Positions 1-63,557 of a DNA stretch of 63,557 bases are shown in pieces. Where the stretch lies: IMG/VR virus record IMGVR_UViG_3300045988_164395; one strand, given 5' to 3'. Within the stretch, counting starts at the first letter, position 1, and every line of letters begins with the position of its first letter. Origin of the DNA: a virus. The notes under the pieces are model-generated. The model saw nothing but the letters and a program-made list of their open reading frames with translations, searched no databases and had not been told where the DNA came from. A program made the position numbers and the translations under genes.

Positions 1-55
1 GTCTAGTTTAGTTTTTGTGTTGTGATACTCCTGCTGAAAGTGTTCATCAGGAGTG
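1..55. repeat. Terminal 55-bp exact direct repeat (same as 63503..63557); circular-contig overlap
   Basis: Bases 1-55 match 63503-63557 base for base. Unique length is 63,502 bp. Confidence 0.95.
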
Positions 56-200: not shown

Positions 201-1394
201 ATGGCAGGGTTATTCATAACAATTGTACCTAATTTAAAGTTAAAAAATGGTAAACATACAGTCCGAATAGCTATCACTCATTCAGGACAGACAAGATATA
301 TACCAACAGACGTAACGATAGATTCGGAAAAAGAAATCAACAAAGGACGCATAGTTAAGCGTCCGGATAAGGATTCTCTGAATATGAAACTCAGAAAACT
401 TCTGAATGTTTACGAAGAAAGGCTGGATAATATACAATATGCAGACTGCCTCTCATGCACGCAACTCGTAAAAATTCTCAAAGGACCTGTAACAGGGGAA
501 AAACATAGGACATTTAAAGACATTGCAGAGGAATATCTTTCACAAATAGATATAGAGGATCGGGCTAAGACATATAAACTATACAAGTTGGCAACAAACA
601 GATATCTCCAGTATGCAGGTGACACAACACTGATGGAGCATATAAATCCAATTCGCATTAATAACTACATCATGACGCTACAGAAGGACAAACTATCTCC
701 AACAAGCATTAATATCTATATCACCTTATTGAAAGTAGTGATAAACTATGCAGTCAAGATGAGATATGTAACATTCGACGTTGATCCGTTCGTAACAGCT
801 AAGATCCCATCAGCAAAAAAAAGGGAAACATTCATAACTGTAGAACAACTCAGAAAGATAAGGGATGCCAAACTTGAAAAGCATAACATGTGCGTAATTC
901 GCGATATCTTTATGCTTACTTATTATCTTGCCGGAATGAATCTTGTAGACATGCTGGACTATGATTTCAGGAATACCGATGAAATATACTATGTACGCAA
1001 AAAGACCAGGCATACTAAAGAAGGTGAGAATGCCGTGAACTTTTCGATTCCTGATGAGGCAAAGCCAATCATACAACGATACATGAATAAGAAATCAGGG
1101 AAACTCATTTTTGGGCGTTATTCCAGCTATGTTAGCTGCTATAATGTTCTCGCAAGGAAGATAAAGGAACTTGCAGAAGTGGGCGGAATTAAGCACTATT
1201 TTACTCTATATTCAGCCCGTAAGTCTTTCGTTCAGCACGGATTCGACCTTGGGATTCCTCTCTCTACACTGGAATACTGCATCGGTCAATCGATGAAAGA
1301 CAGTCGCCCGATATTCAACTATGTATCCATAATGAAGAAACATGCAGACAAAGCAATAAGGGAAATTCTTGATAATTTGAAAGAAAAGCCCTAA
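201..1394 (+). CDS. int: Tyrosine integrase (Bacteroidetes phage-integrase type)
   Basis: 397 aa. The N-terminal arm-like domain (KNGKHTVRIAITHSGQTRYIPT) and C-terminal catalytic region (YSARKSFVQHG...IFNYV) fit a tyrosine recombinase. It sits next to the repeat-rich non-coding junction. Confidence 0.8.
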   Translation: MAGLFITIVPNLKLKNGKHTVRIAITHSGQTRYIPTDVTIDSEKEINKGRIVKRPDKDSLNMKLRKLLNVYEERLDNIQYADCLSCTQLVKILKGPVTGEKHRTFKDIAEEYLSQIDIEDRAKTYKLYKLATNRYLQYAGDTTLMEHINPIRINNYIMTLQKDKLSPTSINIYITLLKVVINYAVKMRYVTFDVDPFVTAKIPSAKKRETFITVEQLRKIRDAKLEKHNMCVIRDIFMLTYYLAGMNLVDMLDYDFRNTDEIYYVRKKTRHTKEGENAVNFSIPDEAKPIIQRYMNKKSGKLIFGRYSSYVSCYNVLARKIKELAEVGGIKHYFTLYSARKSFVQHGFDLGIPLSTLEYCIGQSMKDSRPIFNYVSIMKKHADKAIREILDNLKEKP

Positions 1395-3893: not shown

Positions 3894-4085
3894 TTTACTA
3901 AGATTTTAAATTAAACAAAAAAGCCCCTAGATAGCATATCTATGTACACTATCTAAGGGCATATGACAAATATAATTATTATATTATAACCCTAATCGAA
4001 TTATGAAAAACTAAACGAGTATAGTATTGGTATATTTGCTTGATTTCTACCTATTTTCTACTTTTTTTATATTTCCCTAATTTTA

Positions 4086-5288
4086 TTACAAATAAAAATT
4101 ACAAGATGAGGCTTGAGTTATTACATTATTATTTTTCTTTCTCTTGACCGCCTTCAAGTCTCTTACGATTGTGCTTGATAAAATCTCCGAATAGATTTCT
4201 GTAGTCTTAACTGAGGTGTGACCTAGCAGTCGCTGAACTGTCGTAATCGGGACACCTTGATGAATGAGCAGCGTAGCACAGGTATGACGTGCTGTATGGT
4301 AGGTTATGTGCTTCTTGATCCGAGCCATGCCAGCAATAGCAGACAGAGCCTTATTCACTTCCGAATTACTGCCTAAACTGGCAAACTCTGTTATACAGTA
4401 GCGATCCAGAATAGACAATGCTTTCCCCTCGAATAACAGATGCAACGGAAGGCGCAACTCGATACCTGTTTTGATTGATTTGAAGTGTAGCCACTTCTTA
4501 CCATTTACCTTGATAAAATTTGCAGGTGATAACTGGCAGAAGTCAGAGAATCGCAAACCGACGTAGCAACAGAATAGGAACGCATCCAGCACATGACGCA
4601 ACTTCCTATCGCTAACTTCAAGGTTCTCCAGCTTTTTCAGTTCGTCCGGAGTCAAGAACTCATGCCTTCCCTTTTCCTGCTTTATCTTAAACTTGCGAAA
4701 CGGGTAAGCGTCTGCATGAATATATCCCTGGTTAATGGCTTCGTTGACTAATGTTCTGAGCTGCCTCAAATGCTTTGCCACGGTATTTATTCCGTTACCT
4801 TTTTCCCTAAGATATACCTCGAAGTCCTTCAAGAACGTGTACGTTATATCCTTGAAATCTAGCCCTGGTCTAAACTCCTGCAATACGGTTATGGTGGTAT
4901 ACAGATTCTCCTTTGTACTCTCTCTCCTATCAGAATGTGTAACGTATTCCTTTGCAAAGACAGGAAATGTAACATTAACCGGACGGTTCTTCTTCATTGC
5001 GTCCTTCAGTAAGGATAACGTGGCTGGAACTCCTCTTTTCCATAGAGCCAATTCTATTCCCTGAAGGTATAGAACAAACTCAAACAACATAGAATTTAAA
5101 TCATCAGCTTGCGGATGAACGATAATCTGAGAGGTCCGCTTATCCCAGTGTTCTGGGTGTAAGTAAACATTTGTTTTGAAATATACTTTGCGCTGGTTCA
5201 ATGATGCTTCTACTTGTACGAGTGCTGTTCCTTGCTTATTAAGTTTCTTCTTGCGATTATAGACAAGCCGGTATTTTATCTTATCCAT
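4086..5288 (-). CDS. Tyrosine site-specific recombinase; candidate shufflon invertase
   Basis: 400 aa with RFSD...HTARHT...LGHTSVKTTEIY (R/H-x-x-R/H/Y catalytic pattern). The start codon is 48 bp from the leftmost inversion site. Confidence 0.8.
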   Translation of the reverse strand: MDKIKYRLVYNRKKKLNKQGTALVQVEASLNQRKVYFKTNVYLHPEHWDKRTSQIIVHPQADDLNSMLFEFVLYLQGIELALWKRGVPATLSLLKDAMKKNRPVNVTFPVFAKEYVTHSDRRESTKENLYTTITVLQEFRPGLDFKDITYTFLKDFEVYLREKGNGINTVAKHLRQLRTLVNEAINQGYIHADAYPFRKFKIKQEKGRHEFLTPDELKKLENLEVSDRKLRHVLDAFLFCCYVGLRFSDFCQLSPANFIKVNGKKWLHFKSIKTGIELRLPLHLLFEGKALSILDRYCITEFASLGSNSEVNKALSAIAGMARIKKHITYHTARHTCATLLIHQGVPITTVQRLLGHTSVKTTEIYSEILSSTIVRDLKAVKRKKNNNVITQASSCNFYL

Positions 5289-5335
5289 TTTTACGTCAAA
5301 AATAGATATTTACAAAGAAAGAGGCAAATTTGGCT

Positions 5336-5352
5336 GTGGGAGGACTATTACC
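5336..5352 (+). repeat. Inversion site A (GTGGGAGGACTATTACC)
   Basis: Matches the consensus GTGGGAGRACTRYTRCM. GTG is in codon phase with cassette A. Confidence 0.8.
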
Positions 5353-5764
5353 GGAAGCCACAAAAGATAGTAAAGGCTTGATGAGTAAAGAAGACAAAAG
5401 AGCATCCTTGATTTTTTATGATGCTGGACAAGTAGCAGGATTTGTCAAGATAATTAAAAATATTCCAGAATCCTGTAACTTAATTTTTAGCCTTATAAAA
5501 AAACAAAAATCAGCAGATGTTTATTCTGAATGCGAAGTTGCAGCTGTAAGGCATCCATCCAACGAAAACAATAAATTGAGGGCTTCTTGCATACAGAATA
5601 TTGGGAATTTTAATGTTTATCTGGATAGAACAGATAATTCAATATTATTTAAGGTGGAAGCTTATACATTTGTATCAATCTCATTAAAACTTAGAACGGC
5701 TAATTGTCCAGCTATAGAATGTGAGTTTTTAGCATCACTCCCTGAAAGTGCAGAAAGTATTTAG
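5336..5764 (+). CDS. Silent tail-tip cassette A (no own start; VGGLLPEATKDSKGLMSKEDK...)
   Basis: The frame is open from the site GTG. The N-terminus is nearly identical to the expressed copy (GGLLPEAT.KSKGLM) and then diverges. Confidence 0.65.
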   Translation: MGGLLPEATKDSKGLMSKEDKRASLIFYDAGQVAGFVKIIKNIPESCNLIFSLIKKQKSADVYSECEVAAVRHPSNENNKLRASCIQNIGNFNVYLDRTDNSILFKVEAYTFVSISLKLRTANCPAIECEFLASLPESAESI

Positions 5765-5781
5765 GAGGCTAAGTGCCTCCT
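5763..5781. terminator. Bidirectional hairpin between convergent cassettes A and B
   Basis: AGGAGGC-TAAGT-GCCTCCT. Confidence 0.5.
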
Positions 5782-5805
5782 TGTATTAACTATTTGAAAT
5801 CTATA

Positions 5806-6240
5806 TTATATTAGAATATTTACTGGATCTATATTAGTTCCTGAAAAGCTCTCAAATTCCGCATAATCAAACATTGTTACAGTAGGTACATAGTCTCGAT
5901 AGCCAGACAAGTGATATGTCAATCTGCTATCTTGTGTACTTCCTGCTATATAAAGTATTTTAGAATCAGTATCTAATTTAATCTTAACCCCATCAGTCTT
6001 ACCGATAGCTACAACAGATATATCTACTTTTTTGGCTTCTGTGACAAAAATAAGTTTATTAAAACTCCCTGTATCATATAATTCTATATCAAAAGAGCAA
6101 CATACATTCCATAATTTATCCCCATTAACTTTAGAAAAATCAATTTTTAAGCCATTGCTGTAATCCCCTCTATAATAAGAATATTCTTTAGCCAATAGTC
6201 CGTTTTTTGCCTGCGTAGATACAGGCAATAGTTCTCCCAC
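5806..6240 (-). CDS. Silent tail-tip cassette B (VGELLPVSTQAKNGLLAKE...)
   Basis: The frame is open from the site GTG and shares the LLP...K.GL motif. Confidence 0.65.
   Translation of the reverse strand: MGELLPVSTQAKNGLLAKEYSYYRGDYSNGLKIDFSKVNGDKLWNVCCSFDIELYDTGSFNKLIFVTEAKKVDISVVAIGKTDGVKIKLDTDSKILYIAGSTQDSRLTYHLSGYRDYVPTVTMFDYAEFESFSGTNIDPVNILI
6224..6240 (-). repeat. Inversion site B (GTGGGAGAACTATTGCC on the minus strand)
   Basis: Consensus match at the 5' end of cassette B, preceded by CACC. Confidence 0.8.
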
Positions 6241-6278
6241 GGTGGAATATCATTACAAAATTGTATGAAAAAATCACC

Positions 6279-6294
6279 GTGGGAATATACTATC
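6279..6294 (+). repeat. Degenerate inversion site F (CACC-GTGGGAATATACTATC) with a vestigial 9-codon reading frame
   Basis: It shares CACCGTGGGA with sites B and C. The frame stops after VGIYYLKFC. Confidence 0.5.
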
Positions 6295-6731
6295 TAAAAT
6301 TCTGCTAATTGTTTAGCACTAGATAAATCAATTTCATTAGTAACATTCATTATAATTTCTGATGATCGAATCCCAAATAATAGTTTAACTCTAACTTCTA
6401 ATATTGATGTATCAGATTCTGTTTCGATGTATATATTATTATCAATATTTTTCAAACGGAATTTATGTTCTCCATTTTTGCCTAAACTATTTACTTTTGC
6501 AACCAATGAAGTATATTCTCCATGCAATAGAATTATAGATTTAATTGTAGTATAATTGCAGTATACAGACAGTTCAAAAGCCCTAAACGTGTTTCCGCTG
6601 GCAGAAATAGAAAATAAATGTAATATCTTTTTCCCAACATTTGACATCCCTATATGAAACTCACCTCCGTTATTCATAGTTGAAAATCCCCTCGATTCTT
6701 TTTTACTAAAATTGGGCAATAGTCCTCCCAC
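6294..6731 (-). CDS. Silent tail-tip cassette C (VGGLLPNFSKKESRGF...)
   Basis: The frame is open from the site GTG. Confidence 0.65.
   Translation of the reverse strand: MGGLLPNFSKKESRGFSTMNNGGEFHIGMSNVGKKILHLFSISASGNTFRAFELSVYCNYTTIKSIILLHGEYTSLVAKVNSLGKNGEHKFRLKNIDNNIYIETESDTSILEVRVKLLFGIRSSEIIMNVTNEIDLSSAKQLAEF
6715..6731 (-). repeat. Inversion site C (GTGGGAGGACTATTGCC on the minus strand)
   Basis: Consensus match at the 5' end of cassette C, preceded by CACC. Confidence 0.8.
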
Positions 6732-6769
6732 GGTGGTTTTTCTTTACATTTCTGTAAGGAAAAATCTAG

Positions 6770-6786
6770 GTGGGAGAACTACTACA
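6770..6786 (+). repeat. Inversion site D (GTGGGAGAACTACTACA)
   Basis: Consensus match at the 5' end of cassette D. Confidence 0.75.
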
Positions 6787-7087
6787 GAAAAATTATTTAT
6801 ATCCATTTCAAAGGAGATCTGTACCAGAATCTGATTTAAACAAATTTGTTAGTCCTGGCTGGGGTATGATAGCGGGTGATTCTTTTAAAAATATACCTAA
6901 TGAAGCATACAAGTTTGGTACTGTTTTTTTAATAGGAAGTCCAACCAGATATGATCATGTGGCTCAATTTTATGTACCTGATAATAACACCGGATTTTAT
7001 TTCAGATCTGTATATAGTGGAGCTGAAAGTGACTTAACTGAAATAAATACCGAATGGAAAAAAATATCATTTAGCAATATTATGTAG
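6770..7087 (+). CDS. Silent tail-tip cassette D (VGELLQKNYLYPF...), the shortest cassette
   Basis: The frame is open from the site GTG (105 codons). Confidence 0.55.
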   Translation: MGELLQKNYLYPFQRRSVPESDLNKFVSPGWGMIAGDSFKNIPNEAYKFGTVFLIGSPTRYDHVAQFYVPDNNTGFYFRSVYSGAESDLTEINTEWKKISFSNIM

Positions 7088-7090
7088 AAT

Positions 7091-7124
7091 AAGATAGCAG
7101 GCTACGGAAAAAGCCTGCTGTCTT
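7091..7124. terminator. Bidirectional hairpin between convergent cassettes D and E
   Basis: AAGATAGCAGGC-N10-GCCTGCTGTCTT (12-bp stem), overlapping the cassette E stop codon. Confidence 0.6.
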
Positions 7125-7635
7125 ATTTTGCAATTTCTATGAGTCCACTTGTATCTGTACTTTCTTGCTCCTCTTTTAAGAAGGTCGTATTTTCTAAGCC
7201 TTCTGTATTTGCGAATATGACATAAACAAATGTATAGGCAGGAACGTAAATATACAATGAGAGCATTTGATCTTCTTCTTCTTTGTAATAAAATTTACTT
7301 GCCCGTGAACCGGGACCAATATCGTTTATCCCTCTATAAATAGCTTCCCGTCTATTGACAATAGAAAATGTAAAGAATGTTGTTGGTCTTCCAACACATT
7401 TCTCCCAAGCAAACATACCTAAAGGGTTAATAGCTCCGGATTGTTTTTTCATTATGCCTATTTTATATAATTTATTTTCAGATAAAGGTGCAGTCCATGA
7501 TGCAAGAGGATAATAATAAGGATATTTGCTCGGCATTAATCCTTTACTTTTACTTGTTGCTTCAGGTAGCAGTCCTCCCACAACTGATATAGTTTCCGGA
7601 TCTCTTATTACTTCATTAAAATCTATTGTTTCCAT
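7123..7635 (-). CDS. Expressed tail-tip/receptor-binding protein: constant 18-aa leader plus cassette E
   Basis: It starts with ATG and encodes METIDFNEVIRDPETISV followed by VGGLLPEATSKSKGLM.... It lies 24 nt downstream of the tail fibre gene. Confidence 0.7.
   Translation of the reverse strand: METIDFNEVIRDPETISVVGGLLPEATSKSKGLMPSKYPYYYPLASWTAPLSENKLYKIGIMKKQSGAINPLGMFAWEKCVGRPTTFFTFSIVNRREAIYRGINDIGPGSRASKFYYKEEEDQMLSLYIYVPAYTFVYVIFANTEGLENTTFLKEEQESTDTSGLIEIAK
7565..7581 (-). repeat. Inversion site E in the expressed gene (GTGGGAGGACTGCTACC on the minus strand)
   Basis: Consensus match 18 codons into the only ATG-initiated ORF of the set. Confidence 0.8.
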
Positions 7636-7659
7636 AATCTAACTAATTTAAAATTTTTA

Positions 7660-18278: not shown

Positions 18279-18842
18279 TCAGCGCTTCATCATTCTATGT
18301 TTGATTTCACGTTCTGCCTGCCGGACCATATTGGCGTAAATACCTGCAGATACAACATTTACATCAATATTCATCTTATAATATGTCATTATAAATGCAA
18401 TCTCAGCATCGTACGATTCACGTATATTCTGAGGTTTGGAATTTTGATTATTCTTCAATCTGTCATTATGTTTTTTTTGCATATACAGGCACTCGGCTAT
18501 ATGCCTGTCAATCTTACTTTCAACCTTTTCAGTAGTAACCTTTCCATAACCCAGATCTTTCATGGCGACAAGGACAAATCCGACCTCTCCAAGTGACAAT
18601 AATGCTTTGCACATTCTCAATGCAAGCAGACGTGATTTTATTTTGACCTCTTCTTCCCTATCCATCAAATAAGATTCTACACCAGATGGATTAACTATTT
18701 TCCTATAGTCGTATATAAGGTCCGATGCCTTTTTCTTGAGATCTGACGATGGTTGCTCCTCACCTTGCAACAATACGGAATAATTACCGCACAACAGTTC
18801 GATAAAGTTCTTCAACGATATTTCACTTATATTCTCAATCAT
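18279..18842 (-). CDS. Hypothetical protein downstream of the tape measure gene
   Basis: 187 aa. It overlaps the TMP stop by 4 nt. Confidence 0.5.
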   Translation of the reverse strand: MIENISEISLKNFIELLCGNYSVLLQGEEQPSSDLKKKASDLIYDYRKIVNPSGVESYLMDREEEVKIKSRLLALRMCKALLSLGEVGFVLVAMKDLGYGKVTTEKVESKIDRHIAECLYMQKKHNDRLKNNQNSKPQNIRESYDAEIAFIMTYYKMNIDVNVVSAGIYANMVRQAEREIKHRMMKR

Positions 18843-63502: not shown

Positions 63503-63557
63503 GTCTAGTTTAGTTTTTGTGTTGTGATACTCCTGCTGAAAGTGTTCATCAGGAGTG
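63503..63557. repeat. Terminal 55-bp exact repeat (same as 1..55)
   Basis: Identical to bases 1-55. Confidence 0.95.

Follow-up and report, generated by a model that had tools for sequence, protein, structure and literature searches.

At the end of the tail operon in the 63,557-nucleotide (nt) virus record IMGVR_UViG_3300045988_164395 of IMG/VR, hereafter the window (the whole stretch analysed), lies a candidate multi-site DNA inversion switch, or shufflon, in which copies of one short site head a series of alternative protein bodies, all within 2.3 kb between the last tail-fibre gene and a tyrosine recombinase gene. The fibre gene (457 amino acids (aa); 7660..9033, minus strand) follows tail genes of phrog_3267, has a weak match to CBM_5_12 (E 2e-4, under the Pfam cut-off) and stands directly upstream of the switch; the 24-nt gap that the initial annotation placed between it and the switched open reading frame (ORF) is indeed present and holds four in-frame stops, which exclude read-through from one into the other. 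The switched ORF (7123-7635, 170 aa, minus strand) opens with a constant leader of an ATG plus 17 codons (METIDFNEVIRDPETISV; 7582..7635), the system's only translation start, crosses the expression site (7565..7581, minus strand; core GTGGGAG at 7575-7581), an exact match to the site pattern at whose core edge two assemblies end exactly, and continues into body E (7123..7564), the one now expressed. Four silent cassettes follow: D (105 aa, short class, inverted; 6770..7087, plus strand, site 6770-6786), C (145 aa, in the operon direction; 6294..6731, minus strand, site 6715-6731), B (144 aa; 5806..6240, minus strand, site 6224-6240) and A (142 aa, inverted; 5336..5764, plus strand, site 5336-5352). 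A flank of 47 base pairs (bp; 5289..5335) then leads from the last site to the start of the recombinase gene (4086..5288, minus strand), and the 48 bp stated earlier is thus correct from start to start, the intervening gap being 47 nt.

These bodies form three invertible segments, E/D, C alone with a decayed site, and B/A, each bounded by inversely oriented sites and separated from the next by a 38-bp spacer with a palindrome, TTACA...TGTAA, inside it. Spacer 1 (6732..6769), internally palindromic, lies between back-to-back sites; spacer 2 occupies 6241..6278. A two-way hairpin terminator, called by the terminator scan, is placed between E and D (7084..7131; -32.4 and -20.9 kcal/mol, z -9.0 and -5.5), and a weaker hairpin with a 7-bp GC stem between A and B (~5763..5781; -15.5 and -12.9 kcal/mol, z -2.8 and -2.5), which the same scan did not call. 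Cassette C has neither a convergent partner nor a hairpin, its stop abutting the decayed site, so that the earlier description of convergent pairs with a common hairpin fits E/D well, A/B less strongly, and C not at all.

The sites of E, D, C, B and A are exact matches to the pattern GTGGGAGRACTRYTRCM, five in all. With up to three mismatches allowed, the whole window holds 10 matches against 1.6 expected, a number reached in none of 100 shuffles, and the heptamer GTGGGAG occurs six times on the two strands of the 63.5 kb, five of the six being sites. The initial annotation had counted six sites, one of them degenerate; five are intact, and the sixth (6279..6295, plus strand; GTGGGAATATACTATCT), which reads GTGGGAATATACTATC, keeps six of seven core bases and has lost its right arm. 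Joined to the leader it would yield a stump of nine codons (27 aa with the leader), formerly read as a truncated, OFF-like state; together with C and spacer 2 it moves as one block in three contigs (L007 and L035 among them), and it is probably dead rather than a designed OFF state.

All five intact sites open an ORF in a single phase, with products starting V-G-(G/E)-L-L; the silent bodies are without an ATG of their own, and the 7581 copy alone has an ATG and an 18-codon leader upstream, as had been proposed. The site consists of the invariant heptamer and a conserved right arm (N-ACT, weaker beyond), which doubles as the coding sequence for the common start of every body, while the left side is free. 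That conservation is confined to the cassette side is borne out by the relatives, in which no position of 35 distinct left flanks exceeds 0.7 bit, whereas positions +1 to +11 of 46 distinct right flanks are invariant, including the synonymous +3, +6 and +9; a left-arm or accessory motif sought in the spacers and flanks gave no position conserved across all left flanks. Over all fetched loci, 46 of 48 distinct VG[GEV]L[LI] starts read GTG-GGA-GNA-CT. Because +3, +6 and +9 stay fixed although changes there would be synonymous, and +12 varies freely, the pattern of conservation points to a constraint on the DNA itself, beyond that on the protein. Related sites take the form CTGGGAGAACT in a Phocaeicola vulgatus remnant and CTGGAAGRACT in the phage BS-TP2, both described below.

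Public sequences contain the same locus in many arrangements. A backbone set of ten contigs (L001-L010), two of them chromosomes of 2-3 Mb, was assembled by exact look-up of the identical 400-aa recombinase; across it the recombinase gene and the 47-bp flank are 100% identical in nucleotide sequence, whatever cassette adjoins, and the leader is identical or nearly so where a contig reaches it. The arrays between these fixed ends follow one grammar (site in plus orientation, two convergent bodies, site in minus orientation, 38-bp spacer, site in plus orientation, and so on) and number one to four segments, differing in content, order and orientation. Cassette A adjoins the recombinase flank in the window and a spacer in L004 and L005, two contigs in which spacer 1 is present in both orientations; cassette E, which the window expresses, is silent in L005; and cassettes M, T and G, foreign to the window, occupy the leader, spacer and recombinase positions in turn. 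Counted over all loci, A is found in five left contexts, B in seven, M in four, G in three, and C, E, T and V in two each, with every junction at GTGGGAG. One 914-bp core-to-core segment, at 99.3% identity, stands in opposite orientations behind the same leader in L044, leader-[A> <B], and L051, leader-[B> <A].

The junctions follow a simple rule: base -1 goes with the flank, bases from +12 onward go with the cassette, and base +8 is mostly cassette-linked (T in seven of seven copies of cassette T), so that strand exchange appears to take place within or just beside the heptamer. The overlap region of tyrosine recombinases measures 6-8 bp, with which such an exchange window agrees. The tail-fibre gene is 90-99.6% identical in relatives with other cassettes, and since arrays of one to four segments sit on backbones 99.6% identical in that gene, segments are also gained and lost, besides being inverted.

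The fusions that inversion should generate were looked for among public proteins and contigs, and several occur. The exact protein predicted for leader plus A exists (P0060, on 12 contigs), as does that for leader plus C (P0075; contigs L035 and L052), both joined at GTGGGAG, and leader plus B exists with one residue changed (P0032 and P0089, starting VGG, with G for E at body residue 3, against VGE in the window). Cassette D is found fused to four other leader types (P0050-P0054). Assembly breaks fall at the same place. In ERZ917592, assembled with k = 127, a 932-bp contig corresponds to window 7701-6770; its first 127-mer comprises 120 nt of left flank and the 7-nt core of the expression site, its last comprises 120 nt of D and the D core, and the next contig opens with the identical 127-mer. 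In ERZ27262184, a 51-kb contig terminates on the last base of the B core, and other contigs start 140 nt inside A or B beside the recombinase. Such breaks hint at more than one continuation after the core in the reads.

The enzyme next to the array, a presumed invertase of 400 aa, combines Arm-DNA-bind_5 (PF17293), Phage_int_SAM_5 (PF13102) and Phage_integrase (PF00589) domains and has all the catalytic residues (R, HxxR, H and Y); NCBIfam yields sub-threshold matches to XerC, XerD and integron integrases and nothing further. More than 100 near-identical variants occur in gut metagenomes under the public label "integrase" alone, for which reason prophage annotation pipelines miss the system. 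In relatives of 85-87% identity a homologue is separated from the last site by about 50 nt, and a tyrosine recombinase adjoins the last site in relatives over the wider range of 74-87%. The same leader and core are also found beside other tyrosine recombinases, encoded on the opposite strand, of 379 aa (L034, 6085-7224, minus strand) and 389 aa (L051, 2174-3343, minus strand), which at 32% and 24% identity are unrelated to the window enzyme. In L045, L046 and L047 (~6480-7270), a deletion of 892 bp, by comparison with L044, has taken out cassette B together with the 5' portion of the recombinase gene, leaving body A locked behind the leader.

By length the bodies form two classes, a long one of 136-155 aa, in which most members start VGGLLPxATxxxxGLM, and a short one of 88-115 aa, usually with a W..W motif at the end; comparison of bodies by BLAST finds no homology beyond the first ~17 residues. 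The idea that the LPxATxxxxGLM start is a known phage tail-fibre repeat was dropped, as family searches gave it no support. An AlphaFold2 model of body E (predicted local distance difference test score, pLDDT, 79.6) is an all-beta sandwich with a disordered leader, and against BFVD, a collection of predicted viral structures, it has 31 matches at E <= 1e-3, the named ones being mostly tail fibres, tailspikes and depolymerases.

We consider it highly likely, from these arrangements taken together, that the locus is a shufflon in a BV01-like prophage, whose adjacent recombinase inverts segments and thereby fuses the constant leader to alternative bodies. In the proposed mechanism the tail-operon promoter and the leader ATG would stay fixed, the recombinase would pair two oppositely oriented sites and exchange strands within or beside the heptamer, and the intervening DNA would invert, bringing another body in frame behind the leader, with the hairpins closing the convergent pairs. 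Simulated inversion among the five intact sites yields 64 states, in which D and A are one inversion from the leader and B and C two, so that the stepwise access to B and C foreseen in the initial annotation is recovered, as is, from the fusions found, its central proposal of multi-site inversion. Switching may be frequent within one population, in which case a lysogen population would release virions of differing specificities.

Several observations weigh against this reading. The exact leader-D fusion is absent from the viral contig collection and the protein collection, and leader plus B with the window's VGE start from the protein collection; base +8 does not always go with the cassette, either A or G being present there in B and in V; and contig breaks at core edges could equally stem from mixed strains. 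Three unrelated recombinases beside one core would be odd if each must recognise that core, and the 4086-5288 enzyme has the arm-binding domain of an integrase as well as the name. As to the product, the E model compares weakly with solved structures (best T4 gp9, E 4.5e-3) and the D model is of low confidence (pLDDT 63) with no match at E <= 1e-3, neither being used as evidence; searches of Pfam, PHROGs and NCBIfam assign no body to a family, even when matches up to E 10 are admitted; and the docking to the fibre of a protein with a constant part of only 18 aa lacks an explanation. Lastly, all rearrangements seen are between contigs of different samples.

This last point would also be expected if the array were an evolutionary mosaic, built by occasional homologous or rare site-specific exchange of cassettes among related phages and fixed within any one lysogen. 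Arrays differing in content, which inversion alone cannot bring about, the locked derivatives without B and the recombinase 5' part, and the decay of one of the six window sites fit such a history too. Yet cassettes join unrelated flanks precisely at a core of 7 bp, a length insufficient for homologous exchange; no change is seen at the synonymous positions of the site; the array still has beside it an intact recombinase, complete in its catalytic residues; assemblies from three samples break at core edges; and read-level switching is described for BV01-like phages in the available passages of a preprint (PMC13596623). We regard a mosaic fixed within the lysogen as most unlikely.

The inversion reading places the switch inside a prophage whose limits are plain. 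A perfect 55-bp direct repeat lies at both ends of the window (1..55, copy at 63503-63557), and its nt 1-23 are identical to the 25-bp att of BV01, than which it is longer; the first 22 nt of that att are conserved across all members of the BV01 subfamily (PMC8354205), and the att of Salyersviridae (GTCTAGTTTAGTTTTTGTGTTG...) is the one used here. Since this repeat bounds the window and begins as the BV01 att, the window is one complete integrated BV01-like (Salyersviridae-type) prophage, of the kind associated with gut Bacteroides. Its phage gene set is complete, in the order terminase, portal, protease, major head protein, tape measure, tail proteins, switch, recombinase, lysis genes and, beside the att repeat, a second integrase-like gene (201..1394, plus strand), which has the position of the BV01 integrase gene and is presumed to encode the phage integrase, outside the switch. 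The BV01 att-side gene is an integrase gene needed for excision, as judged from a deletion mutant (PMC8354205). Because the att repeat contains no GTGGGAG and the BV01 att-side gene is an integrase gene, the prophage has two different sites and two recombinase genes. The att-side protein shares 20% identity with the 4086-5288 recombinase; Asn, Tyr and Gln are aligned at the first catalytic Arg and the two His of the latter, the aligned tyrosine is displaced by two residues, and PF00589 gives no match, so it may be a divergent active integrase or impaired.

In the interval between the lysis genes and the integrase, L002, L004-L006 and L008-L010 carry an AAA_15/AAA_21 ATPase gene (484 aa) and a 239-aa gene (e.g. 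L002, 9217-11395), in place of which the window has, at ~1400-2100, a 126-aa ORF (1589-1969); the interval appears to be a place of variable cargo, perhaps of defence genes.

With two recombinase genes in one prophage, inversion could be real and yet catalysed by another enzyme, either a host invertase or the att-side recombinase, with ORF 4086-5288 serving as an integrase or in some other role. Bacteroidales genomes encode many trans-acting invertases. The three-domain integrase build of the 4086-5288 protein with its arm-binding domain, the name given to it in the sources, the occurrence of one core beside three unrelated recombinases, and the unusual residues of the att-side protein at three catalytic positions would all be in keeping with that division of labour. 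On the other hand, a tyrosine recombinase of one sort or another is invariably present 47-65 nt from the last site, which is hard to explain if none acts there; the att repeat has nothing in common with the shufflon site; the locked L045-L047 arrays are also without part of the recombinase gene; and the att-side gene is already accounted for in BV01 by its requirement in excision (PMC8354205). Catalysis by an enzyme other than the neighbouring one is, in our judgement, very unlikely, and we take the 4086-5288 recombinase as the probable catalyst on the strength of its position and residues.

What the switch would change is harder to read from sequence. As its gene closes the tail operon, and in view of the varied bodies and the modelled fold, the product is proposed to be the distal specificity protein of the tail, one that may bind a receptor, the putative "tail tip" role being drawn from gene position and weak structural similarity only. 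It might instead be a helper of fibre assembly or a factor outside the virion, such as a surface or exclusion protein of the lysogen. No body matches a family, the constant part is just 18 aa, the structural matches are modest, and the body belongs to a separate ORF rather than to the fibre's own C-terminus, all of which would suit a protein of that sort. Against it stand the position of the switched ORF as the last gene of the tail operon, 24 nt past the fibre gene, the prevalence of tail fibres and tailspikes among the named structural matches, a body diversity as high as expected of specificity determinants, and, in the passages available of the preprint cited above (PMC13596623), the treatment of a homologous target as a tail-fibre end; an assembly helper, moreover, should be invariant, since the fibre that it would have to fit is constant. 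A role other than that of a receptor-binding tip is therefore unlikely.

The bodies available to the switch extend well beyond the window. The identical leader precedes at least 25 different bodies among public proteins and contigs, and E-type bodies also stand behind other constant parts, of 19, 38 and ~100 aa; because the same bodies occur behind different leaders, the cassette pool is common to different phages. A set of integrase-like proteins of 322-497 aa that clustered with cassette A proved unrelated to it, the clustering being an artefact. As a tentative extension, for which we would claim limited probability, the sites may act as an open cassette platform across the phage family, on which cassette pairs with the 11-bp site at their borders are captured, lost and traded between co-resident salyersviruses in the manner of an integron, with at least 25 bodies on one leader and also on others, and with three unrelated recombinase lineages recruited to one core.

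Relatives at greater distance show other states of the locus. In L012 (5848-6231) and L016 (5558-6268), whose recombinases are 85-86% identical, 43 or ~100 aa instead of 18 make up the constant part ahead of the site, and neighbouring sites are 9 bp apart, or 11 bp in L011, not 38. As a motif, ..NGN..I(S)K..L..V, before the site is common to the longer constant parts, the 18-aa leader may be a shortened version of such a part. Decayed forms include P0078, in which a 21-aa stump of another cassette is followed by a second site before C, and L040 (~2795) and L033 (~3933), whose leaders have only 12 or 26 codons after them; these may be arrays stripped of cassettes. A Phocaeicola vulgatus chromosome contig (L018, 1-1330) carries a truncated recombinase copy, 69% identical over the first 198 residues, beside one D-like cassette with CTGGGAGAACT, next to cobalamin genes and with no phage genes. 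It was considered as a source of BV01 and rejected, being a chromosomal remnant; it is a stranded shufflon remnant, and may be the phage-homologous chromosomal stretch that is masked, according to the passages available, in the 2026 preprint.

A megablast search of 4000-9100 against 50,697 phage records gave no match, and the cultured phage BS-TP2 (L024/L025, PQ571275.1), grown on Bacteroides salyersiae, was found only by protein search. Its recombinase, annotated "integrase", is 74% identical to that of the window, its leader has 16 aa and its core reads CTGGAAG; the record, a "complete genome", is cut exactly at a site and has a 140-nt terminal overlap.

In the human gut, the temperate phages met most often in Bacteroides and Phocaeicola include those of BV01 type, and the hosts themselves use DNA inversion to alter their capsules. 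A switch by which a phage could take tip bodies from a large common pool would be the matching counter-move, and could explain broad or shifting host ranges. The 18-aa leader with an 11-bp site could also serve as a natural, compact scaffold for swapping receptor-binding bodies, and BS-TP2 opens an experimental route to the system.

Phage inversion systems are best known from Gin of Mu, Cin of P1 and Min of p15B, in which, as proposed here, inverted DNA with alternative fibre ends changes host range, and of which Min is multi-segment. Those enzymes are serine invertases, however, and need a Fis-dependent enhancer, and since the adjacent window enzyme is a tyrosine recombinase, with the corresponding domains and the residues R, HxxR, H and Y, membership of that group is excluded; in Mu, furthermore, most of the fibre gene stays constant, and inversion exchanges a second gene (U) as well. 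Closer in its logic is the R64 shufflon (Rci, sfx, pilV), in which many-site inversions at sites that share an unvarying core of 7 bp and have only one arm conserved, driven by a tyrosine recombinase at the array end, place variable C-terminal bodies on a constant N-terminal part. In the window, too, the sites are several, stand in opposite orientations and combine an invariant heptamer with a single conserved arm. R64, in contrast, is a conjugative plasmid and pilV encodes a pilus adhesin, where here the switch belongs to the tail operon of a prophage; the window enzyme has an integrase-type arm-binding domain; and the number of window segments varies, whereas the asymmetry of the R64 sites is said to prevent deletions.

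The initial annotation held a tyrosine-recombinase-linked tip switch to be unusual for a phage, a view that two precedents contradict. In the Rin shufflon of Bifidobacterium prophages (Mavrich et al., 2018; PMC6109161), a phage tyrosine invertase lies, as in the window, beside several start-less cassettes of receptor-binding proteins separated by short asymmetric repeats, and inversion fuses a constant 5' part to variable 3' parts. Rin differs in host phylum, in phage type, in a constant part that amounts to a full N-terminal receptor-binding-protein gene, and in the 11-bp rix site TTCCCTAACCC before each cassette, which is missing from the window locus; a search of the window for it gave a single match, with one mismatch, at 18542, which is chance level.

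The nearest precedent is an active tail-fibre shufflon in BV01-like Phocaeicola vulgatus phages, compared here by its description in the available passages of a Research Square preprint (16 Sep 2026, PMC13596623). It has three invertible cassettes with six variants, a recombinase on one side and a carbohydrate-binding tail fibre on the other, and all configurations were present in reads. The phage group, judged by att, is the same, the window repeat starting with the BV01 att; its directional 10-bp motif, TGGGAGAACT, corresponds to TGGGAG(A/G)ACT in the five intact window sites (GTGGGAGRACT); the array lies, as here between 7660-9033 and 4086-5288, between a tail-fibre gene and the gene of an enzyme called simply "recombinase"; and its three units with six ends are matched by E/D, C/x and B/A, one end of which has decayed. 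The window differs in that its array measures 2.25 kb against 1.7 kb and its target is a separate ORF of 170 codons with an 18-aa leader, where those passages speak of the distal end of the fibre gene, a difference that may be one of annotation only. The passages available contain no mention of an exchange window at the 7-bp core, of frozen synonymous positions, of a pool of at least 25 bodies on one leader, of three unrelated recombinases or of locked deletion derivatives, all of which are described above. The window locus is thus a further, well-documented example of the BV01-type shufflon and not a new kind of system.

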